Assembly (NCBI GenBank): GCA_942493095.1
Contig: OW818675.1
Span: 1,920,001 to 1,952,000, forward strand
Direction: 5' to 3'
DNA from: Candidatus Electronema halotolerans
GTDB taxonomy: Bacteria > Desulfobacterota > Desulfobulbia > Desulfobulbales > Desulfobulbaceae
Length of the DNA: 32,000 nucleotides
Shown: positions 11,160-31,115 of the stretch, one piece after another
Position numbering within the stretch: position 1 is the first letter of the stretch
Layout of the letters: every line of letters starts with the position of its first letter
Notes under the pieces: model-generated
The model's database searches: none
What the model was told of the DNA's origin: nothing
Seen by the model: the letters and a program-made list of their open reading frames with translations, nothing else
Position numbers and translations under genes: made by a program

Positions 11160-11430
11160 GTAAACGCATGACTTATTCTTGACAAATCATACGTTTGCCC
11201 TGCGAAGCAGGAAGAGAGCAGCTCTAAGCAGCCCGCATGGCGCAAGAAGATGATTGGGCTGGTGTTTGATACAACCTTCATTCCGCGCTGGATATTTGTC
11301 TGGCAGTCTGCAAATCTTCTTCAACAGACTCAGATGCGACGATATAACCGGTTGAGAAATACTCTTTCAACCGTTTTTTAAAATTGTCAAACCCTAAGCC
11401 CAATGAATGGTGATGGTGAACTGTGAGTGA

Positions 11431-12168
11431 TCAATTAAACAAAAGATTATTATTATAATCTTGAATGAACCTCCAGACAGATGCAGTTAAATTTTCGATG
11501 CTTCTCGAAAATGAAATGGTCTTTCTGACAAGTGCAGACAATCTTTGTCTGAATGTCAAATTGAGCCTTTCGATATGACTTGTTTTTCCGCTTCCTTTGC
11601 TGACAATTCTATGCCTTTCAGCTGGAAACACGCTCGAATAAGCGGCGAGTCCATCCGTAAAAAATATTCCGTTCTTTTTGCAATCTTCAGAAAGGGAGTC
11701 CCACAAGGCGGCTGCTCCTGCATTATCTCTTTTTCCAACATGATATCCGACAATAAGCTTTGTTCTTCTCTCGACAGCAAGCCATATCCAAATATCATTT
11801 TCCTTGTCACCAACGAAAGTCCACATTTCATCGGCTTCGATGAAGATTTTTCCGTTGCGGGACATATTGAAAGCCTCTTTTTTGACTTCATTTCGTTTTT
11901 TTTTAACATATTCCTGAAGCCATCTTTTTGAGATGGAAACGGCTCTCGCAATCCCAGCCAAGGAGATTCTTTCAACAAGAAGCTTATCAACTATGCGCCA
12001 TTCAGCATCAGATATTGTTTTGTTCTGAGGATTCTCAACGAATTGACGTGAGCAGTCCTTACATAAAAATTTCTTTTTCCCATTCGCATTGGAGCCATTT
12101 TTCACAATGACTGATGAACCACATCTTGGGCATTGCACAGCTTTCTTCTCCATGTTTGTTTTTTTCAT
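11431..12168 (-). CDS. IS1-family transposase in the single-ORF fused InsA-InsB form.
   Basis: The N-terminus has a zinc finger (CPRCGS...CKDCSRQF) and an HTH. The DDE core carries IS1-typical motifs: EADEMWTFV, FTDGLAAY and HIERLNLTFRQRL..LVRKT.SFS. Confidence 0.9.
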   Translation of the reverse strand: MKKTNMEKKAVQCPRCGSSVIVKNGSNANGKKKFLCKDCSRQFVENPQNKTISDAEWRIVDKLLVERISLAGIARAVSISKRWLQEYVKKKRNEVKKEAFNMSRNGKIFIEADEMWTFVGDKENDIWIWLAVERRTKLIVGYHVGKRDNAGAAALWDSLSEDCKKNGIFFTDGLAAYSSVFPAERHRIVSKGSGKTSHIERLNLTFRQRLSALVRKTISFSRSIENLTASVWRFIQDYNNNLLFN

Positions 12169-12231
12169 AATGACGGCTTGACATGCGCATCCGACGAAGA
12201 GCCGATGGGACAGAGAGCATCCCTTGCCGCC

Positions 12232-12259
12232 AGTATATTATATTTTCCAGCAATTTCAA
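12232..12259 (-). promoter_or_regulatory. Candidate promoter of the IS1 transposase, inside the right end of the element.
   Basis: The minus strand reads TTGAAA-N16-TATACT, about 60 nt upstream of the ATG at 12168. Confidence 0.35.
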
Positions 12260-12521
12260 CATATTTTCAACCCATCACTCACGATTCACCATTACCAATG
12301 AATTCGCTGCGGCCTGAAAGCTCATCTTGTGCGCATGGTATATGCCAGCCGCTAAGAAGAAACGTGCCAATTCCGCTGGACCTGCAAAGACATGAACAGC
12401 AATTTGTCTTAACTGTTTGAAGGATTCGTCACATTGATGCGGTCTATCAATAAAGTTGCCATAGTGGATTAGATTACTTTGCGCTTAACGATTTGCTTAT
12501 AAAAATTAATATTCTGATTAA

Positions 12522-13571
12522 TTAATTTGTCGTATCTTTCTCTTCCGTTATGTTCGGTTCTTGAGGAAGACGAATATCACCCTCAACAGGATTCAGTTTA
12601 AGATGCTGCTCTTGAACCGCGCTTTTATTAGATTCAACAACATCTGATATTGCTTCAAACAGATGCGAATGATTAACTTTCTTTTCCGAGTCGGGCTTAT
12701 CCTCTTTCGCCGCCGAAACAACTCCTTTTAATACAGCATTTTTAATGTCACGTCCAGAAATATCTTTGAATTCTGACGCTAACTTTGAAAAATCAACATC
12801 ATTATCCAGTGGCAATTTATCAGGAATTTGTATCTTCCAAATAGCCTTCCGTGACTCCTCGTCTGGCAATTCAAAATGTAGTTTCCAACGAATCCTGCTC
12901 AAAAAAGCTGGGTCATAGTTACCTATTAAATTTGTAGCGAAAATTATAACTCCTTCATAATTTGATAGCTGAGTTATCATTACACTTCTTGTTAAATTAA
13001 CGGCTGTATCTGTAGATTGAGTAACATTTTCCAGCCGTTTTCCAAGAAAAGAATCCGCCTCATCAAAAAAAAGAATAGCTTTATGTTCCGCAGCAAAAGT
13101 AAACGCACTGACAATATTTTTAGGAGTGTCCCCAACATATTTTGATTCAAGTTGTGAGTACGGGAGAACTATAATTTTTGATTTCAAGGTATAAGCCAAT
13201 GCCTCAGCAGCCAATGTCTTTCCTGTACCTGGAGGGCCTGAAAAATTCACAGAAAGGGCTTTATCTAATTTATGTTTTTCCCCAATTCCCCATTTGTTAT
13301 AAATTAAGTCGTAATGTTTAATTTCAGCCAAAACAGACTCTATCTGTTTTTTTGTATTTTTTGGTAAAATAACATCATTTAATGTATATTTAGGTTCACG
13401 AAGATATAACGAAAAATCAATTAATGAAGAAGGCGTTGATGAATTACAATTTTCTTCTTTGTTATCGTCAGCATCTTCAACAACACCCTTTTTTAAGGAA
13501 CTCACCTTTCCTTTGGAAAAATTTCTGAATTTCTCCATTCTCTCGTCTAAAGGCAAATCGTATCGCGGCAT
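12522..13571 (-). CDS. Classical-clade AAA+ ATPase with one AAA module and an N-terminal region of about 100 aa with no recognised domain.
   Basis: Walker A is GPPGTGKT (nt 13215-13238) and Walker B is ILFFDEAD. A second region of homology is present (IIFATNLIGNYDPAFLSRIR), as is a lid segment (ISGRDIKNAV). The ATG at 13571 is preceded by AGAGGGGG; the track's TTG at 13589 is less likely. Confidence 0.85.
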   Translation of the reverse strand: MPRYDLPLDERMEKFRNFSKGKVSSLKKGVVEDADDNKEENCNSSTPSSLIDFSLYLREPKYTLNDVILPKNTKKQIESVLAEIKHYDLIYNKWGIGEKHKLDKALSVNFSGPPGTGKTLAAEALAYTLKSKIIVLPYSQLESKYVGDTPKNIVSAFTFAAEHKAILFFDEADSFLGKRLENVTQSTDTAVNLTRSVMITQLSNYEGVIIFATNLIGNYDPAFLSRIRWKLHFELPDEESRKAIWKIQIPDKLPLDNDVDFSKLASEFKDISGRDIKNAVLKGVVSAAKEDKPDSEKKVNHSHLFEAISDVVESNKSAVQEQHLKLNPVEGDIRLPQEPNITEEKDTTN

Positions 13572-13590
13572 TTTAGCCCCCTCTTGCAAG

Positions 13591-14190
13591 TCAATCTATC
13601 TGGATAATCAGAGTGTCAAAAAATAAATTACGTTTCATTTCTCCGTATTTATCTGATTTAGTCATCATAGAATCGATACCGCTGAATATTGTATCTATAA
13701 ATTTCATCCCAATACGACCCTCAAATTCTGGAGGTTTTGGAGGAGCAACGAATCTCCTGAATAAATGAGAGAACAATTCGATACATATAACTTTCCATCT
13801 TTGATAAGATTCTCCGGTTAATCCATTGTCTAATATTATAATATCACGTAATCCAGAAGATTTTGTATCTGAAACTATCTTCAGATCATTCTGGTCAATG
13901 CTTGGAACTTTATATCCTCTTTGACTATCTTTGACATCTGGATTATATGCCCAGATTTTAAGATATCGAAAATCACAACTTCGCATTTGACGACTTTTCA
14001 TAAATATCGGCTTAACGATTAAGTCGTCAAAGAAATGCTGTGCTTTTTCACTGACAACGCACTTTCCGTTAGACAGTTTTTCTCCTGGAATCCCTATTAC
14101 TTCAATAGTTTTTAAACTCCCGTCCGCGTTTGAGGAGTTAAAACCTATTTGGAGAAAAATTTCTTCACGTTGCTCATTAACTCGTGGCAT
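13591..14190 (-). CDS. Hypothetical 199-aa protein with no recognisable motif.
   Basis: It is an intact ORF with an AAAGAGG Shine-Dalgarno 7 nt upstream. It is tightly packed between the small membrane protein gene and the ATPase gene, and shares the AT-rich composition of its neighbours. Confidence 0.6.
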   Translation of the reverse strand: MPRVNEQREEIFLQIGFNSSNADGSLKTIEVIGIPGEKLSNGKCVVSEKAQHFFDDLIVKPIFMKSRQMRSCDFRYLKIWAYNPDVKDSQRGYKVPSIDQNDLKIVSDTKSSGLRDIIILDNGLTGESYQRWKVICIELFSHLFRRFVAPPKPPEFEGRIGMKFIDTIFSGIDSMMTKSDKYGEMKRNLFFDTLIIQID

Positions 14191-14205
14191 GACAAACCTC
14201 TTTAT

Positions 14206-14547
14206 TCAGTGCCAATTTTGTAATTTAAGCTTCTTGGCTTCGCTTCGTTGCTTTGGCAAAGGTGAACTTTGGGGAGCTTGTTCCAGCGTAAAAACTTGAG
14301 ATGGCTTGCTATCACAATGAGTTGGGTCCCAAATTTCCATTATAGTTTCTCCTAAGGCATATCCTGCATAAAAGATAACATACAACGTTGAAACATAACC
14401 AAAAGCAGCAATTAAAACAGCAGCAACAGCTATTTCCCATAATTCTTGAAGAAGATATATCAACCCTTCCAAAAAAGCCTTTACTGCTCTTCCTAACCAA
14501 TCAAGCAGTTGATCAAGCAAACTGCCTAACCATGAAAAAAGTCCCAT
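14206..14547 (-). CDS. Small (113 aa) membrane protein, paralog 1, with a conserved C-terminal tail.
   Basis: A GGAGA Shine-Dalgarno lies 8 nt upstream. An amphipathic N-terminus (FSWLGSLLDQLLDWLGRAV) precedes a TM segment (IAVAAVLIAAFGYVSTLYVIFYAGYAL). The tail is QAPQSSPLPKQRSEAKKLKL. Confidence 0.6.
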   Translation of the reverse strand: MGLFSWLGSLLDQLLDWLGRAVKAFLEGLIYLLQELWEIAVAAVLIAAFGYVSTLYVIFYAGYALGETIMEIWDPTHCDSKPSQVFTLEQAPQSSPLPKQRSEAKKLKLQNWH

Positions 14548-14568
14548 TTTTTTATCTCCATATTTTTT

Positions 14569-14982
14569 TTAACTTAGCTTAAGTTTGCCAGCAATAACTT
14601 GCTTGTTAGGCAATGGAGCATCAGATGGTGCTTGCCCTATGGAGCCTATAGATGTTTCCTCTGTGCTCGGATTCATAAATCCAAGATAAACTTCATCGTC
14701 TTCTTGAAACAAGAAAACAATACATTCTTTAATATATCCAAACGCTTCTCTTATTAGGGATTTAACATCCTCCCATTGATTCTGAAGGAATTCAGCTATA
14801 TTAGCCAGAAAAATCTCAGTAGCTTCAGTGATGTATCCAAGAATTCCTTTAACGTCTGCAACAAAACTTTTCCATAAATCAACAAACCGTGGCCATAACG
14901 CATCAATAATTTTTGAAGCGGCATAAACTGTTGCGGCACCTGCCGCAATACCTATTACAGCACGCAATAATATATCTAACAT
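14569..14982 (-). CDS. Small (137 aa) membrane-associated protein, paralog 2, with a conserved C-terminal tail.
   Basis: An AGAGGAA Shine-Dalgarno lies upstream. An N-terminal hydrophobic helix (LRAVIGIAAGAATVYAA) is followed by amphipathic helices. The tail is QAPSDAPLPNKQVIAGKLKL. Confidence 0.6.
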   Translation of the reverse strand: MLDILLRAVIGIAAGAATVYAASKIIDALWPRFVDLWKSFVADVKGILGYITEATEIFLANIAEFLQNQWEDVKSLIREAFGYIKECIVFLFQEDDEVYLGFMNPSTEETSIGSIGQAPSDAPLPNKQVIAGKLKLS

Positions 14983-15080
14983 GACATTCCTCTGTTAGTC
15001 TTTATATAGCGACTTCGGGGTTCCTCGAAAAATACAACATCCATTCTGCTGCATTTGTTTTGTTATTTTTTATTTTAATA

Positions 15081-15108
15081 TTGAAATTTCAGTCTATTAT
15101 GTTATAAT
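15081..15108 (+). promoter_or_regulatory. Candidate sigma70 promoter of the IS5 transposase.
   Basis: The sequence is TTGAAA-N16-TATAAT with TGt directly upstream of the -10 box. It lies 40 nt upstream of the ATG at 15148. Confidence 0.45.
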
Positions 15109-15147
15109 TTCGGCATCAATTCAACTCATGCTGCCGGAGATGCACAG

Positions 15148-16161
15148 ATGAACCAACTTGGATTTTTTGATTTTTATATTCGTCTTTCCCGAATTGACAA
15201 AGCAGGTGATCCTTTAGTTAAGATCAACAAGGCTATTGACTGGGAAATATTTCGGCCAATTCTTGAAGAAGCAAAAAGAAAGCCTGTGAAATCAAATGCT
15301 GGAGCTAAAGGTTATGATTCAGTCATGATGTTCAAAATTTTAATTTTGCAATCATTATACAATCTTTCTGATAAAGGGATGGAATATCAAATTCTTGACA
15401 GATATTCGTTTTCCAGATTCCTTGGACTTCGGGCGGCTGACAAAGTTCCAGATGCGACAACGATATGGCTTTTTCGTGAAACTTTGACCAAAGCAGGAAA
15501 AATCGAGGAACTGTTTTCTGTTTTTGACGAATTTCTTGATGAAAATGGATATCAAGCCAGAAAAGGGCAGATAGTCGACGCTTCCATAGTCAACGCCCCG
15601 ATCCAGCGTAACAGCCGCAAGGAAAACAAGCAGATCAAGAATGGTGAACAGCCTGAAGGATGGAGTGAGAATAAGCAGGCGCAGAAGGATACTGATGCCC
15701 GTTGGACCAAAAAGAACGGCAGAAGCTTTTTTGGTTATAAAAATCATATATCTGTTGATGTGAAGCATAAATTCATCCGAAAATATGCGGTGACCAGCGC
15801 CGAGGTTCATGACAGCAATATTTTTGAGGAGCTGCTTGACCCTGACAACACCAGTCGGGATATCTATGCGGATTCGGCATACAGATCTGAAAAAAAGCTC
15901 AACTGGTTGAACGAGAATGGATACAGAGAGCATCTGAACCGCAAAGGAACACGAAGCCGGAAACTGACCGAATGGGAGAAGCAGGGAAATCGGACAAGAT
16001 CAAAAATTCGCTCCCGGATTGAACACGTCTTCGGCATCCAGGCGCAACGTGCTGGCAATATGATTCTCCGAGGAACAGGTTTCATTCGCGCTGCTGCGAA
16101 AATAGGCTTGAGAAACTTGACGTTCAATATTGACAGGTACGGAACTCTTAATAAAATTTAA
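15148..16161 (+). CDS. IS5-family (IS4/IS5 superfamily) DDE transposase.
   Basis: IS5-typical blocks are present: AGAKGYDSVMMFKILILQSLYNLSD, DATTIWLFRE, IVDASIV.AP, DTDARWTKK....FGYKNHI, ADSAY and SKIRSRIEHVFG. Confidence 0.9.
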   Translation: MNQLGFFDFYIRLSRIDKAGDPLVKINKAIDWEIFRPILEEAKRKPVKSNAGAKGYDSVMMFKILILQSLYNLSDKGMEYQILDRYSFSRFLGLRAADKVPDATTIWLFRETLTKAGKIEELFSVFDEFLDENGYQARKGQIVDASIVNAPIQRNSRKENKQIKNGEQPEGWSENKQAQKDTDARWTKKNGRSFFGYKNHISVDVKHKFIRKYAVTSAEVHDSNIFEELLDPDNTSRDIYADSAYRSEKKLNWLNENGYREHLNRKGTRSRKLTEWEKQGNRTRSKIRSRIEHVFGIQAQRAGNMILRGTGFIRAAAKIGLRNLTFNIDRYGTLNKI

Positions 16162-16384
16162 GATTTAAAAAAAAGAAACGCATTCAGGAACATATTTCAA
16201 CGGAAGTTTGCTCAAAATAAATAAAAAACAGGAAATAACAATTTATGTATTTGAAATTTTCAACTGTCAAAGACACTATTGATAAGCTGAAAAAACTTTA
16301 TCTCAAATTTTTCGAGGTTCCCTTCGGATTGCATGGTTATCAAACCCAACAATGACAAAAAAACGATTTGATTGATTTTGACTT

Positions 16385-16781: not shown

Positions 16782-17162
16782 TCATGCCAGAATAGGAACA
16801 TCCTCATTCGATTCAGGAATGAACAGATCGGCGGAGATTTTCAGCCCTTTCTTCAGCCGCATGATCATCTCAACAGTTAGCTTTTTCTTTCGTTCCAGAA
16901 CTTGCCGCACTACCGCCTTGGTGCCAATATACGGCTCAAGCTCATTGCTGGTGATGCCTTTCCATTCCATGATGTATTTCAGAGCCTCAACCGGGTCAGG
17001 AAAATCAATGGGAAAATGTTTTTCTTCATAATCTTCGGCAAGCACAGACAGCACTTCAAGCTCGTTGAACTCGTCAGAACCCGGCGGCGCATCAAGCAAC
17101 GCATCAATCCGCTGCATCACCTGATTGTAATCTTCCTCTGAACGTATCGGCAGAATGATCAT
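16782..17162 (-). CDS. higA: HigA-type antitoxin: an HTH (Xre-like) protein with an N-terminal extension.
   Basis: It lies immediately downstream of the higB-like toxin in the toxin-first order typical of higBA. An AAGGAGG Shine-Dalgarno lies 5 nt upstream. The HTH region is ITSNELEPYIGTKAVVRQVLERKKKLTVEMIMRL. Confidence 0.7.
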   Translation of the reverse strand: MIILPIRSEEDYNQVMQRIDALLDAPPGSDEFNELEVLSVLAEDYEEKHFPIDFPDPVEALKYIMEWKGITSNELEPYIGTKAVVRQVLERKKKLTVEMIMRLKKGLKISADLFIPESNEDVPILA

Positions 17163-17185
17163 TATGACCTCCTTTCGCGCCGCTT

Positions 17186-17479
17186 TTAAACAGCATTCGC
17201 ATCAATCTTATCGTATTCGGCATGAGTGCCGATGAAGCGGATGTAAACTCGTTGCAGTTCATAAACTGCTTTCACGATCAAGCGGTACTTGTTTCCTTTG
17301 ATATTGAAGCATATTCTGTCGTTCTTGAGAATATCCGCCGTTGAAAAAATATTTTTCATCTCCGCCGGGCCGCTCCAGCTCGCTTTACTGACCACCGCAT
17401 ACCAAGTTTTCAACGCCTGCTCGGAATCAGGATGCTTTTCCCAGAATTCCATCAAAGTTTTGCGCTTGATGATGTGCAT
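17186..17479 (-). CDS. higB: HigB-family type II toxin (mRNA interferase).
   Basis: The sequence MHIIKRKTLMEFWEKHPDSEQALKTWY......W....E.K.......IL...R..FNIKGNKYRLIV.....Q.VYIRFIGTHAEYDKI matches the HigB_toxin pattern. The ATG is at 17479. Confidence 0.8.
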   Translation of the reverse strand: MHIIKRKTLMEFWEKHPDSEQALKTWYAVVSKASWSGPAEMKNIFSTADILKNDRICFNIKGNKYRLIVKAVYELQRVYIRFIGTHAEYDKIDANAV

Positions 17480-17495
17480 GATCAATCTTTTCGGT

Positions 17496-19994: not shown

Positions 19995-20684
19995 TTATTC
20001 TTTCATGATCGTGATGACGCGCTCATCCAAGCAGGAACGCAAAAAGGCATTCATCTGCTGCTGCTCGCCGCTGTCATAAAAGTCCAACATGAGCTGATTG
20101 AATTCCAATTGCCGTTTGGCTGGAAGATTGATCGCAGGATAGCCGCAGCTTAACAAAAATCCATTCATGACAAAACGGCCCATGCGTTTGTTGACATCAT
20201 AAAAAAATTGACAGCGGGCCATAGTCAGAAAATAGTGAATAGCGCGGTCATACACGTCATCAAGCTGCGCTGCCTCTTCTGTCATTTGCGCAAAAAATTT
20301 CAGTAGCTTTTCTGCTGCGGGCGGCAGATAACTTGTTCCAGCAATGGTCACGCCGCCGGAACGAAATTTCCCCCATTCCAGCGCATCTTCCTTGGCGGCA
20401 ATGCTGTGCAAGGCGCAAACTTGTTCAACAGTCACAGCAAACTGCTTTTTTTCTATCAAACGGAAGATGTATCGCCACGCATCAGCCTGATTCAGGGCAA
20501 CCTGCTGGTCGCTGATCTTATGACCGCCGACTGTGATACCTTCGAGCAGAGTCTGGATTTCCGGCAGAGTGTAACTGATTCCCTCCAGATTGACTGCATC
20601 ACAGACAAATTCAGCAAGCTGGCGTTTGGCCAGCATGATTGCCTTGGCTTGATTTGGCCGCATCTGCCAATAGGCATCAATCAT
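19995..20684 (-). CDS. Fic/DOC-fold protein with a degenerate active-site motif.
   Basis: The overall pattern resembles Fic, but the motif position reads QFFYDVNKRMGR (nt 20175-20210) instead of HxFx(D/E)GNGRxxR. Confidence 0.55.
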   Translation of the reverse strand: MIDAYWQMRPNQAKAIMLAKRQLAEFVCDAVNLEGISYTLPEIQTLLEGITVGGHKISDQQVALNQADAWRYIFRLIEKKQFAVTVEQVCALHSIAAKEDALEWGKFRSGGVTIAGTSYLPPAAEKLLKFFAQMTEEAAQLDDVYDRAIHYFLTMARCQFFYDVNKRMGRFVMNGFLLSCGYPAINLPAKRQLEFNQLMLDFYDSGEQQQMNAFLRSCLDERVITIMKE

Positions 20685-20702
20685 CGCAACTTCTTGCCGC
20701 TA

Positions 20703-20990
20703 TCAACTGATGTAACCCCATTCCCTGAACTGCTCCTGCAACTCAGGATCATTCTTGAACGCTTGAAAAAATATATATTCAGGGGCTAAATCTGCGCCGT
20801 TTGGCCAGACAAGTGTTTCTAAGTGCTCGTCAACAGCAAAGGCGGAAAATGCGGATGGTTGTTTCAGCGGCTCAAAAATAGGGCCATGCAATGCTTCAGA
20901 CAAATCAGCAATACCTTTTCGACCATTGTTAAATGCTACTTCTACTTTGTATTCATCAAGATGTTTGGCATCTGTAATATGAAGAAACAT
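20703..20990 (-). CDS. DUF2442 domain protein.
   Basis: MFLHITDAKHLDEYKVEVAFNNGRKGIADLSE.......PL......F..F.VD.....L.WPNGADLAPEYI is typical of DUF2442. I prefer the ATG at 20990, two nt after the DUF4160 stop. Confidence 0.7.
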   Translation of the reverse strand: MFLHITDAKHLDEYKVEVAFNNGRKGIADLSEALHGPIFEPLKQPSAFSAFAVDEHLETLVWPNGADLAPEYIFFQAFKNDPELQEQFREWGYIS

Positions 20991-20992
20991 TG

Positions 20993-21250
20993 TCACTCCA
21001 ATGGCTCGACAGAGTTGGGAGCCGCCTTTTTTCGGCACAGCTCCCAGTTTGCAATCAATTCATCCTGATGCAGTTCATGCCATTCAAGTACATGCCGCAA
21101 AGCTCTCTTTGGAAAGCGCCCTTCAACCACGCCGGTATGAATGTCCACTGTGATTTCATAGCCATCATATTTTGCATGAAAATGCGGAGGACTGTGATCA
21201 TCCCAGTACATGACGATGATTATTCCAAGAAATCTGCTTATTATTGGCAT
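20993..21250 (-). CDS. DUF4160 domain protein.
   Basis: MPIISRFLGIIIVMYWDDHSPPHFHAKYDGYE is the DUF4160 signature. The ATG at 21250 lies 18 nt after the stop of the upstream glutamate synthase gene. Confidence 0.75.
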   Translation of the reverse strand: MPIISRFLGIIIVMYWDDHSPPHFHAKYDGYEITVDIHTGVVEGRFPKRALRHVLEWHELHQDELIANWELCRKKAAPNSVEPLE

Positions 21251-25476: not shown

Positions 25477-25569
25477 CAGTTCAGTCCTTTGGAACTGCCG
25501 GATTTTTTACTGAAGGCTTCAGTCTCCATTTATTCACAAACGATTCTAAAATTCGCACAAAGGCATCTG

Positions 25570-26379
25570 CTATTTTTTATCAAAAATATATAAACGATGA
25601 TAAGCAAGAAAGGCAGGATCAGGATAGAATTTGTTTGGAATTGCTATCCTCTTTCCATTGTAAGATACAATGGACTCTTCCGTATAGCTGTCGTTTGACG
25701 AAAGCGTTTCTGAGACACGGACTGTCATGTTCTCGTTAATGGTTATGATTCCAAGATCAAAGGCTTTGTCGTGAAGTGCTGAAAGCAGCAGGCCGTTCCT
25801 CGGATTCATCCTGTTCTTTTTGTCGCACCGCCAAGGAATAATATGGCTCGCAACTAAAAGTCTTGGCTCAGACAGCCCAGTGACGCAGCATTTGCTCTCA
25901 TAGGCATTCAAGAGCGTCTGACGGAAAAATGCCTGTCCTATCCGCACAGAAGCCTGCACAGTTCTTTCCTCCCCTGCATGATCATCAGCATCTGTTTGGG
26001 ATTCTTTTGATTGAAAGAGTTTATCTGTGGCACTTTTCAACTCAACTGCAAATTTTCCCCAATCGTCATGTATTTCATTCCATAACTCACGATCAGCTTT
26101 TGATGCCCCGGACAATCCTCTTCTTCCAGTTGCGGTGACTTTTTGATCCAGACTCGCTATATTGCATAACTTCATTGCAAGTGCGGACGGAGTCCGGCCA
26201 ATCCCTTCAGCGCACTTTATAATATCTGGATTTTTCGCATGTAATTTTCCGAAAGGGATTTGACAGTAAAGACTGAAGGCTACAAGAAGCTGTTCTCTTG
26301 TCCACAGTTGTCTGCTGTTTTTCAGGACAGGCAATTCAACTTCTCCGGCAGAACATCTGCTTTCTGCTGATTGGTGCAT
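25570..26379 (-). CDS. HNH_2-type endonuclease (putative restriction-like nuclease).
   Basis: The C-terminal signature is RIGQAFFRQTLLNAYESKCCVTG.....LLVASHIIPW.......NPRNGLLLSALHDKAFDLGIIT. The gene is visibly more AT-rich than its neighbours. Confidence 0.75.
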   Translation of the reverse strand: MHQSAESRCSAGEVELPVLKNSRQLWTREQLLVAFSLYCQIPFGKLHAKNPDIIKCAEGIGRTPSALAMKLCNIASLDQKVTATGRRGLSGASKADRELWNEIHDDWGKFAVELKSATDKLFQSKESQTDADDHAGEERTVQASVRIGQAFFRQTLLNAYESKCCVTGLSEPRLLVASHIIPWRCDKKNRMNPRNGLLLSALHDKAFDLGIITINENMTVRVSETLSSNDSYTEESIVSYNGKRIAIPNKFYPDPAFLAYHRLYIFDKK

Positions 26380-26667
26380 TTTTCAATAAACTGCTGACCA
26401 TCATTTTCAGTTGATCAACAGCATCAGCACCCTGCTGCTGGAGGCGGTGGTTTATGACGGGCTGAGGCAGGTGCAGAGAGGACATGAGGAACTGGAACTG
26501 TGCGCGGAAAGGGATTGTGTCAGCAAATCATCTTGCTGCGTCCCCGGATGAAAAGAAAAGGCAATGGGCAGAGACACTCCGTACTGTCAAGGCAGGCGGC
26601 AGAAAGAAAATGCCGCCTTTCCTGAAGACGCTGTCAGAAATTTTTGGGCAAAAATCAGCGGCAATCC

Positions 26668-30490: not shown

Positions 30491-30560
30491 GCAAACTCCT
30501 CTGCGTGCAAGTCCCGGACATATCAGGCCGGGTGTTCTTTCGTTATGCAATCAAATTCAT

Positions 30561-30595
30561 GCCGCCATTTCATCCGAAAAGCAAGAAATGGCGGC
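30561..30595 (-). promoter_or_regulatory. Stable hairpin in the pnp leader; a terminator/attenuator or a processing site.
   Basis: A perfect 11-bp stem, gccgccatttc/gaaatggcggc, encloses a 13-nt loop. It sits between the stop of the 168-aa gene (30609) and the pnp start (30490). Confidence 0.5.
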
Positions 30596-30608
30596 TTATC
30601 TACTGTTA

Positions 30609-31115
30609 TTATGATGGTTTAATACTTTCAAATACCTTCGATGCCTTATTGACAGCATAAGGTGCAAACAAAGTAAGGCCAGCGGTCAAAAAAGTGACAA
30701 CTTTATCGGCATCTTCTCCAAGTTCTCCACTTACAGCAAATCTGTAAAGAGCGAAGGTGCCAAAGCCAATAAAAAGCACCAGAATAGCGATCATGCCCAT
30801 AAATGCAACAAGTCTGCTTGAACTTGCCCGCATTTCTACAATCTTTTCTTTATTTTCGCTATCTTTATTTGTCACCTCAACCGGTTCTGACAAAGCATCA
30901 GAAAGAGACCACTCTGACTTGCCAGAGGCAAGAGCATTCTTTATATTTCTTAGGGTATAAAACAAAACAAAAAGAAAAAATACAATAACGCCATAGACAA
31001 AAAATGAATCTGGCGCATTAGCCGCTTTGCTCTGAGCAAAAGCAGGGGGTGAAAAGAGAAGAACTGAAAGAGCAGCGGCTTGAACAGAATAGAAAAAATT
31101 CCGGGATTGCATCAT
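30609..31115 (-). CDS. Hypothetical membrane protein (168 aa) with a signal peptide and 2-3 TM helices.
   Basis: A strong Shine-Dalgarno (AAGGAGG) precedes ATGATG. The signal peptide is ALSVLLFSPPAFAQ and hydrophobic segments include VYGVIVFFLFVLFYTL and LVAFMGMIAILVLFIGFGTFALY. Its composition is AT-rich relative to rpsO and pnp. Confidence 0.6.
   Translation of the reverse strand: MMQSRNFFYSVQAAALSVLLFSPPAFAQSKAANAPDSFFVYGVIVFFLFVLFYTLRNIKNALASGKSEWSLSDALSEPVEVTNKDSENKEKIVEMRASSSRLVAFMGMIAILVLFIGFGTFALYRFAVSGELGEDADKVVTFLTAGLTLFAPYAVNKASKVFESIKPS

Follow-up and report, generated by a model that had tools for sequence, protein, structure and literature searches.

A conserved four-gene operon of an AAA ATPase and three orphan proteins in a cable bacterium, one copy of a horizontally spread candidate conflict module

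The stretch of DNA analyzed here comprises 32,000 nucleotides of Candidatus Electronema halotolerans (contig OW818675.1, positions 1,920,001 to 1,952,000; hereafter the window). At positions 12,522 to 14,982 it contains a block of four genes, which encode two paralogous small proteins (sp1 and sp2), a 199-residue protein (p199) and an AAA ATPase. The question raised by this locus is whether the block is a system in its own right and, if so, what such a system might do. An earlier reading of the bare sequence (the original prediction) had proposed an undescribed conflict or membrane-remodeling system. The region is one copy of a conserved, horizontally spread module, the full form of which has five parts: a divergent regulator, which is missing here, sp1, sp2 with up to two further paralogues, p199 and the AAA unfoldase. 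No named system in PADLOC 2.0, NCBIfam, Pfam or the literature searched shows this five-part architecture. As to function, a regulated conflict module, either of abortive-infection or of toxin-control type, is the reading we tentatively favor, at a confidence falling a little short of an even chance.

Layout and distribution of the cassette

The four genes of the cassette are co-directional, intact and of full length. They are separated, in the order sp1, sp2, p199 and ATPase, by gaps of 21, 15 and 19 nt (with the ATPase start at 13571), and each is preceded by its own purine-rich Shine-Dalgarno site (Table 1), so that the tight packing described in the original prediction is borne out. For the ATPase, the listing of open reading frames (ORFs) gives a TTG start at 13589, with an alternative ATG at 13571. 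The ATG is likely the real start, because it is served by the GAGGGGG Shine-Dalgarno site, yields the MPR... beginning seen in 31 of 32 homologues and reproduces the deposited 349-residue protein. The GC content of the cassette amounts to 36.1%, against 55.8% for the remaining window, in agreement with the AT-rich character first noticed by eye. The paralogy of sp1 and sp2, likewise suggested earlier, is evident from the cross-comparison of their hidden Markov models (HMMs), which gives E-values of 5e-26 and 8e-24. Scans of the window with Rfam and for tRNA genes returned no structured RNA and no tRNA; in the promoter and terminator scan of the window, sites were no more numerous than in shuffled sequence.

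The cassette is a genuine conserved four-gene operon. The order sp1-sp2-p199-(further sp paralogues)-AAA was found in essentially every one of about 33 distinct loci, the ORFs of which were typed with HMMs built from the loci themselves, and the four genes thus co-occur in a fixed arrangement in other genomes. sp1 is the first cassette gene in 29 loci, and p199 lies between sp2 and the ATPase in 32. Extra sp paralogues are frequent, with up to two more per cassette, and comparisons among sp1, sp2 and the extra copies give cross E-values from 1e-6 to 1e-26. Represented are 26-27 cyanobacteria together with Thiomargarita and two cable bacteria. The filamentous cyanobacterial hosts include Okeania, Microcoleus, Oscillatoria, Trichodesmium, Nostoc-type genera, Phormidium, Rivularia and Lyngbya; further hosts are Woronichinia, which is non-filamentous, as well as Beggiatoa, Thiomargarita and the two cable bacteria. 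One copy is carried by a 22.8-kb plasmid of Synechococcus elongatus PCC 11801. A scan of one genome per species gave 29 loci in 185,579 species representatives. In nine of ten loci examined, the GC content of the cassette lies 5-19 points under that of its flanks, the exception being Thiomargarita.

The small ORFs are conserved as coding sequence. sp2 is the most conserved component of the cassette, with at least 150 homologous clusters at 48-78% identity, nearly all of 113 residues and none named or with a Pfam domain. The cassette of the sister cable bacterium (locus L006) is 79-82% identical to that of the window at the nucleotide level, and in all four genes the differences at the third codon position exceed those at either other position. 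The counts by codon position are 25/10/45 for sp1 and 14/20/38 for sp2. This excess at the third position indicates that the small ORFs are coding.

Most copies possess a fifth component. A divergent regulator gene lies just upstream of sp1 in 25 of the 33 distinct loci; the description as a four-gene system, although correct for the genes present here, had missed both this regulator and the extra sp paralogues. Fifteen of the 25 regulators are proteins of about 170 residues with a LuxR/sigma-70-region-4-like helix-turn-helix (HTH), weak Pfam matches and the motif LTPxEKLxLRGLLCGYSPxEIA. Nine are HTH-NB-ARC STAND NTPases, of which seven measure 446-470 residues and two are truncated at about 160, and the remaining one, in Thiomargarita, is an XRE-type HTH protein (two regulator genes are given as examples in Table 1). 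The regulators of about 170 residues end in a conserved Asn-rich beta segment, e.g. VVNVTNINIENNQLVIAFNLRIP, which looks like an amyloid-type or beta-hairpin motif. A tblastn search detected no remnant of a regulator in the window or in L006.

The four proteins

The last gene, the only one recognized in the original prediction, encodes a single-module classical AAA ATPase (PF00004, 2.6e-24) in which all the named motifs are present: Walker A GPPGTGKT, Walker B ILFFDEAD, the pore loop KYVG and the second region of homology DPAFLSRIR. GPPGTGKT, FFDEAD, KYVG, the sensor-1 motif FATN and SRIR are kept in at least 95% of 32 homologues. The conservation of the Walker, pore-loop, sensor and arginine positions indicates that the enzyme is very probably active and substrate-threading. 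Among solved sequences, p97/Cdc48 D2, VAT and Rpt4 come closest, and the protein falls together with p97 and Rpt in the classical clade. A conserved tail, LxPVEGxIxLP, follows the lid. The N-terminal region, earlier taken as an unassigned part of about 100 residues, holds no folded domain; it consists of a conserved MPRxD peptide and a variable low-complexity linker of about 40 residues, and the AAA module begins at about residue 55. In one cyanobacterial metagenome-assembled genome, a two-module Cdc48-like AAA gene lies directly downstream of the cassette ATPase gene (Table 1).

Comparison of the ATPase with family profiles gives matches to phrog_3757 (3.6e-54) and to a CdvC-like profile (1.9e-22), and a Moraxella phage gene shows 45% identity. 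The top defense profile is that of IetA in PADLOC (110 bits, 2.3e-32), a match which covers only the generic AAA core. The NCBIfam equivalog for IetA, NF042959 (IteA), likewise the top ATPase match in that collection, gives 101.8 bits against a cut-off of 510, next to 96.6 for PAN and 82.9 for Cdc48. In the source record the protein (CAK8719050.1) is named "ATP-dependent zinc metalloprotease FtsH". This identity was rejected, since TIGR01241 gives 61.9 bits where the cut-off is 600; the protein is mis-annotated, as it has neither a membrane anchor or hydrophobic N-terminus nor an M41 protease domain.

The sp paralogues have a common core, which runs from a helix ending at an invariant Gly through LYVIFYxG...ExIMEIWDP and KPSQVFxL to PLPxxRSEAKxLxLxNW. 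A beta module of about 45 residues and three strands is common to sp1, sp2 and the further paralogues, all of them encoded by adjacent genes. In sp1 (source record: "hypothetical protein", GCAAIG_08520), the N-terminal helix is hydrophobic and rich in Gly/Ala, with Asp as the third residue (MLDILLRAVIGIAAGAATVYAAS); it is followed by a helical middle and by the C-terminal beta-rich module, paralogous to that of sp2. The protein starts here with MLDILLRAVIGIAAG, and the 22 aligned homologues show MWD or M[VA]WD with a Gly-rich helix, so that the general start is M-x-D or M-x-W-D. sp2 begins with an amphipathic helix (MGLFSWLGSLLDQLLDWLG), continues with a hydrophobic helix at residues 38-66 and ends in the three-stranded module (ETIMEIWDP / SQVFTLEQ / KKLKLQNW). 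Its AlphaFold2 (AF2) model, with a mean predicted local distance difference test (pLDDT) score of 81 and a predicted template modeling (pTM) score of 0.38, sets a helix at 3-65 and strands at 69-72, 84-90 and 105-110. A free tail in sp1 and sp2 (PLPxK...KLKL), resembling a MIT-interacting motif and read by a Vps4-type N-domain, was also considered. The idea was weakened, given that the ATPase has no folded N-domain and that the AF2 model makes KLKLQNW a strand of the three-stranded mini-domain and not a free tail.

The term membrane protein, given to both small proteins in the original prediction, has its support in hydropathy only. The best 19-residue Kyte-Doolittle window reaches 1.83 at the N-terminus of sp1 and 2.2 at residues 41-59 of sp2; across homologues the maxima are 1.5-2.3 for sp1, 2.2-2.75 for sp2 and 1.0-1.3 for the extra copies, which have no hydrophobic segment. 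In sp1 the segment is an extension of the N-terminus in which Asp occupies position 3 or 4, and in sp2 it lies in the middle. These values make it plausible that sp1 and sp2 are membrane proteins. Neither protein has a family in Pfam, NCBIfam or PADLOC, and sp2 has none in PHROG; the PHROG matches of sp1 are weak ones to tape-measure proteins (best E 7e-4), and every sp1 alignment member searched against Pfam at E <= 1 gave noise only. The sp1 and sp2 profiles found no match among the PDB sequences, and a Foldseek search of the PDB with the sp2 model gave no match at E <= 0.001. EACC1, a candidate for the identity of the sp module, was set apart by description only: in Kaur 2020 it belongs to actinobacteria, has one transmembrane helix and is partnered with a caspase gene.

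p199, a "hypothetical protein" in the source record (GCAAIG_08515), is an orphan as well. A word-indexed search of 5.8 G proteins gave 17 homologues, and a full HMM scan gave 47 representatives among 1.84 G cluster representatives. Its invariant C-terminal IIQID sits in a conserved LFFxxLIIQID strand. The AF2 model (pLDDT 80.8, pTM 0.75) is of mixed alpha/beta type with a disordered loop at 156-178; Foldseek found no match for it in the PDB or among the viral structures of BFVD, with best E-values of 0.46 and 1.3. p199 has no match in Pfam, NCBIfam, PADLOC, PHROG or the PDB sequences, and none of 14 alignment members of the family belongs to a Pfam family (searches at E <= 1 gave noise). A role as adaptor, sensor or effector is possible. 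As regards sp1, sp2 and p199, the original prediction had recognized no nuclease, protease, sensor or phage structural motif, and the Pfam, NCBIfam and PADLOC searches agree. With no family for the three proteins, no match among PDB sequences and no PDB fold for the sp2 and p199 models, the statement that the system is undescribed holds.

A Met-Pro-Arg start recurs across the cassette proteins. MPRxD begins 31 of 32 cassette ATPases, and 11 of 32 p199 proteins start with MPR. In the extra sp paralogues that follow p199, MPRx[DE] stands at or near the start of 17 of 18 (at residue 1 in 15 and at residue 19-21 of the longest ORF in two). None of 62 sp1 or sp2 proteins has an MPR start. A common docking peptide and recognition of the N-terminus are two possibilities for this shared start.

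Table 1. Coordinates and composition of the cassette, its flanking elements and related loci
Feature	Locus	Position	Strand	Details
sp1	window	14982..14569	-	137 aa; ORF listing; Shine-Dalgarno GAGGAA
sp2	window	14547..14206	-	113 aa; ORF listing; Shine-Dalgarno GGAGA
p199	window	14190..13591	-	199 aa; ORF listing; Shine-Dalgarno AGAGG
classical AAA ATPase	window	13571..12522	-	349 aa; ATG start; Shine-Dalgarno GAGGGGG
IS5-family element	window	15018..16322	+	transposase 15148..16161; DDE_Tnp_1 1.3e-23, DUF772 (Pfam)
IS5-family terminal inverted repeats	window	15018-15033 / 16307-16322		16 nt
IS5-family target duplication	window	15014-15017 and 16323-16326		4-bp TTCG, intact
promoter-like site inside IS5 end	window	15124-15096	-	faces the operon; consensus match only
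IS1-family element	window	11397..12308	-	transposase 12168..11431, downstream of the ATPase gene; DDE_Tnp_IS1 2.6e-21, Zn_ribbon_InsA (Pfam)
IS1-family inverted repeats	window	11397-11431 / 12274-12308		35 nt
HigB	window	17485..17186	-	2.9e-33 (Pfam); HigA-like gene follows; pair spans 16782-17485
ORF of first low-GC patch	window	19995..20684		229 aa
regulator, example	L038	5726-6238	-	
regulator, example	L008	3869-5224	-	
two-module Cdc48-like AAA	L021	10034-11884	+	616 aa; PADLOC IetA 3e-73; cyanobacterial metagenome-assembled genome
CHAT-TRADD-N-sp2 fusion	L039	6164-7348	+	Trichormus sp. NMC-1, WP_143046498.1, 394 aa
plasmid cassette, Moraxella osloensis p2	L043			AAA + 119 aa (MIDPVSIGLWLLAGAAIG...) + 130 + 232 aa; between two IS elements
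plasmid cassette, Comamonas resistens pZM22-1	L047			AAA + 117 + 123 + 206 aa; among addiction modules
plasmid cassette, Planktothrix agardhii p1	L048			five paralogous proteins of 103-125 aa, two beginning MEPIS and MVEPIT, then AAA
plasmid cassette, Nostoc flagelliforme pNFSY04	L044			200 + 169 + 48 aa, then AAA

Known systems and the proposed function

Taken as a whole, the cassette lies outside the known kinds of system, and in its broad logic it resembles other NTPase-controlled cell-death modules. The first comparison to be made is with IetAS, which consists of the AAA ATPase IetA and the subtilase IetS and was first described as a plasmid-stabilizing toxin-antitoxin pair; it is also an anti-phage system. 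IetA reportedly serves as the ATPase antitoxin of the protease (PMC13069673). Both IetAS and the cassette encode a small single-module classical AAA ATPase beside one or more presumed toxic partners. In contrast to IetAS, the partners here are three orphan proteins, and the IetA score of the ATPase hardly exceeds those of PAN or Cdc48. No peptidase S8/subtilase was found in the window or among the listed families of 127 neighboring ORFs from the 33 loci. With this partner not found and the ATPase far under the equivalog cut-off, an identity with IetAS was rejected.

The Bell and Babybell proteins, executioners of amyloid-signaling cell-death systems in multicellular bacteria and E. coli, offer a parallel to the small proteins. 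Their hallmark, the "MEPIS" motif, is a hydrophobic helix at the N-terminus in which position 2-3 is acidic and a central glycine is essential, and a C-terminal beta motif common to adjacent gene products triggers membrane attack (10.1101/2020.01.06.895854; 10.1101/2024.11.07.622273). The sp proteins are similar to Bell/Babybell (Bab-Agp) in their small size (110-140 residues) and in a hydrophobic N-terminal helix that has central glycines and is acidic at position 2-4, a likeness of pattern only. The two groups also agree in a C-terminal beta-forming motif common to adjacent gene products, in an association with CHAT and NB-ARC and in cyanobacterial enrichment. They differ in that the shared part of the sp proteins is a module of about 45 residues and three strands, as opposed to an amyloid motif of 20-25 residues, and in that a dedicated AAA unfoldase and p199 belong to the cassette and are lacking in Bell/Babybell.

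A further link leads to the TRADD-N/CHAT conflict systems (Kaur, Burroughs, Iyer, Aravind 2020, 2021). In these papers (PMC7159879, PMC8195603), architectures of the CHAT-TRADD-N type are typical of conflict systems of multicellular bacteria, and the cassette resembles these systems in a similar phyletic bias and in HTH-STAND neighbors with a VMAP-M9-type HTH. Term searches of the two papers and the sections consulted gave no description of the sp module or of this AAA cassette. One protein of a Trichormus strain joins the two worlds: WP_143046498.1 combines a CHAT protease, with the HFSGHG and NACYS motifs of the kind holding the catalytic His and Cys of the caspase fold, a TRADD-N domain (1e-8) and an sp2 module in its entirety. 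This protein is adjacent to a 1479-residue WD40-repeat protein and to a second protein with the same CHAT-like N-terminus; p199 and the ATPase are not adjacent to it. In contrast to the TRADD-N/CHAT systems, the window holds no TRADD-N, CHAT or effector-associated domain, and the fusion occurs only in this one distant relative.

For the action of the ATPase, Vps4/CdvC with ESCRT-III and Msp1/ATAD1, which extracts membrane proteins, serve as working analogies. In each case a classical AAA hexamer threads small membrane-associated helical proteins. The cassette ATPase differs from these enzymes in having no MIT domain and no transmembrane anchor, and its partners are not of the Snf7 or PspA family according to Pfam. 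A slr0374-type cyanobacterial AAA operon was considered as a further comparison, on which a literature search yielded nothing of use. The ATPases of extracellular contractile injection systems (eCIS), of the Afp15 type, fall in the same broad ATPase subfamily, with about 34% identity between the cassette ATPase and the "AAA family ATPase" genes of Serratia entomophila plasmids, which we take to be the Afp eCIS ATPase. Unlike the cassette ATPase, one or more relatives in an eCIS context are much longer (728 residues) and lie beside a DUF4157 protein.

Related gene arrangements were found on plasmids. ATPases 36-44% identical to that of the window adjoin two to five small unnamed proteins with an N-terminal hydrophobic helix, as in the Moraxella, Comamonas, Planktothrix and Nostoc plasmids of Table 1, and these pairings of an AAA gene with small-protein genes may constitute a wider undescribed class. 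The surroundings of the cassette itself include HicA, PIN, MazE, HepT/MNT, DUF433/DUF5615, Fic, Uma2, HigBA, STAND NTPases, Csx1 and a PD-T4-6 match. The homologues of p199 co-occur with AAA and small-protein genes, a point that the original prediction had proposed to check; its further question of an enrichment beside defense genes is answered only by a raw tally without background control, in which toxin-antitoxin or defense-type neighbors are frequent.

Taking these comparisons together, the conflict module that we favor would operate as follows. The sp paralogues, each with a long hydrophobic or amphipathic helix and a small beta module, would be the executioners, and we infer that they are toxic when active. 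On account of the common beta module and the helix in each, they could co-assemble and drive their hydrophobic helices into the membrane, by analogy with the membrane attack of Bell, Babybell and HeLo-type proteins. The ATPase, which has pore loops and no substrate-binding N-domain, would thread the sp proteins, with p199 probably as adaptor or sensor. Two directions are conceivable for this step. The ATPase may keep the sp proteins disassembled or extracted, in an antitoxin-like manner comparable to that reported for IetA, or it may unfold them and release the helix, in the role of a trigger. Where the regulator is present, it would set expression, through an HTH or HTH-STAND protein in cyanobacteria and through an XRE-type HTH in Thiomargarita. 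An anti-phage effect would be in keeping with such a scheme. The points in its favor are the strict synteny, the excess of third-position differences, the competent ATPase motifs, the hydrophobic helices, the common beta module and the CHAT-TRADD-N fusion, and furthermore the regulator, the toxin-antitoxin neighbors, the plasmid copy, the low GC content, the related plasmid ATPases and the IetA precedent. None of the three refuting conditions named in the original prediction was borne out; its conflict part has support from genomic context only, and its membrane part from hydropathy.

Several observations weigh against this scheme. The neighborhood tally is uncontrolled, as already stated. Where sp2 has its hydrophobic stretch, the alignment shows charged, non-hydrophobic segments in sp1 and the other sp paralogues; the sp2 stretch may consequently be a buried core and not a membrane helix, so that the membrane assignment stands on the hydropathy windows and is tempered by this alignment. 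PADLOC has no model for sp1, sp2 or p199. Homology of the sp proteins to Bell, Babybell or HeLo is not established by Pfam, which gave no match, or by Foldseek, which gave none for the sp2 model; moreover, the layout of a Bell/NLR amyloid relay is not seen, because the STAND/NB-ARC neighbor has an HTH at its N-terminus in place of the sp motif. An hhalign comparison of sp1 with the MEPIS-like small proteins of Moraxella and Comamonas gave 37.5% probability over 26 columns, confined to the hydrophobic helix, and one of the sp core with the small Planktothrix paralogues gave 0.3%; the sp proteins and the plasmid small proteins are accordingly treated as sharing an architecture and not a family. 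Finally, in the sister cable bacterium the cassette occupies the same chromosomal site, beside the same GXGXG glutamate-synthase-like gene, and the flanking housekeeping gene is of similar identity (about 80-82%). Being about as diverged as this gene and fixed at one chromosomal site, the cable-bacterium cassette behaves as a long-resident gene set.

A bolder form of the conflict reading, which we regard as doubtful, would make the cassette the founding member of a new class of cell-death or immunity systems. An AAA unfoldase and a p199 of new fold would gate the membrane insertion of co-assembling small executioners, as an ATP-driven counterpart of amyloid-templated Bell/HeLo. Such a class would be common to multicellular cyanobacteria, giant sulfur bacteria and cable bacteria and akin in logic to the Moraxella, Comamonas, Planktothrix and Nostoc plasmid cassettes.

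The same IetAS precedent opens another explanation, namely a plasmid or genomic-island addiction module with no phage role. Here the sp proteins would act as toxin, and the ATP-dependent antidote would be the ATPase, alone or together with p199. The history of IetAS as a plasmid-stabilizing ATPase-antitoxin pair fits this explanation, as do the Synechococcus plasmid copy, the frequent toxin-antitoxin neighbors and the presence of related ATPase cassettes on small plasmids among RelE/ParE and other addiction genes. It is nevertheless unlikely, considering that most copies are chromosomal and that both the HTH-STAND regulators and the CHAT-TRADD-N fusion speak for circuitry of sensing and cell death more than for plain addiction. 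Addiction and conflict roles are not mutually exclusive.

The host range could instead point to a housekeeping module for membrane or protein assembly in large filamentous bacteria, possibly serving cell-cell junctions, intracellular membranes or sheaths, where the task of the ATPase would be the assembly, extraction or recycling of small structural proteins of the membrane. The distribution is biased toward filamentous cyanobacteria, Beggiatoa, Thiomargarita and cable bacteria, the two cable bacteria share a stable chromosomal site, sp2 is very strongly conserved and the ATPase matches the CdvC-like profile. However, only 29 of the 185,579 species representatives are positive, which implies that the cassette is absent from most filamentous cyanobacteria, and it is found in the non-filamentous Woronichinia and on the Synechococcus elongatus plasmid. 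Genomic position and the copy number of sp paralogues vary, the GC content is consistently foreign, and the cassette has neither a MIT domain nor a partner of the ESCRT-III or PspA type. We do not expect a housekeeping role to prove correct.

Flanking elements and the state of this copy

The position of the block between an IS1-family and an IS5-family element (IS, insertion sequence) near higBA, as given in the original prediction, is confirmed by Pfam matches (Table 1). A composite transposon was ruled out, because the flanking elements are of different families; each has its own inverted repeats, and the IS5-family element has its own target duplication. The IS1-family transposase is encoded by a single 245-residue ORF, a fusion of the InsA zinc ribbon with the DDE domain, instead of two frames linked through a frameshift. 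Relative to the sister locus, the window has gained higBA and both IS copies. The absence of higBA from the otherwise collinear L006 makes it look inserted between the glutamate-synthase-like gene and the cassette. L006 instead carries, upstream of sp1, an ORF for a 115-residue coiled-coil protein and, downstream, a PIN gene. Further low-GC patches (40-48%) occur near 20000-21000, 25500-26500 and 30500-31000, in surroundings of about 58-60% GC, and may be other acquired genes; the ORF in the first patch (Table 1) has as its L006 counterpart a Fic-domain gene beside Uma2.

The IS5-family copy looks like a recent insertion. It ends 36 bp from the sp1 start codon on the upstream side, and the operon is thereby separated from its native upstream region. 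This raises the explanation that the present copy is silent or decaying, its promoter removed by the insertion and its regulator absent. The intact target duplication directly upstream of sp1 and the failure of tblastn to find a regulator remnant agree with it. On the other hand, all four ORFs are intact and of full length, L006 is also without a regulator yet has kept the genes with third-position differences in excess, and a promoter-like site in the IS5 end, a consensus match only, points at the operon. Silence or decay is quite improbable; with the regulator absent and the IS5-family copy so close upstream, expression here may depend on read-out from the IS element.

The explanation that survives least well, a prophage or contractile-injection-system remnant whose Afp15-like ATPase has a described assembly role, is largely refuted and scarcely credible: to its credit stand the Serratia identity of about 34%, the phrog_3757 and Moraxella phage matches, the tape-measure matches of sp1 and a "Collar" gene 1.4 kb downstream in Thiomargarita, but sp2 has no relative in 50,697 phage genome records or 2.9 M viral contigs, no sheath, tube, baseplate, spike or capsid family is listed among the 127 neighboring ORFs of the 33 loci, the Collar gene is not conserved in other loci, and the tape-measure matches are weak and may reflect helical composition alone.

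At the practical level, the public record misnames the ATPase as FtsH and leaves the other three genes unnamed. If the conflict reading is true, the cassette would represent a new control of regulated cell death in bacteria, in which an unfoldase acts on pore-forming or membrane-targeting small proteins, and functions would be assigned to three orphan protein families. The many unannotated plasmid cassettes of an "ATP-binding protein plus small hypothetical proteins" would become one functional class. Furthermore, the immunity-like systems concentrated in multicellular bacteria would extend to the cable bacteria and the giant sulfur bacteria, which would be tied to the cyanobacteria by gene transfer.

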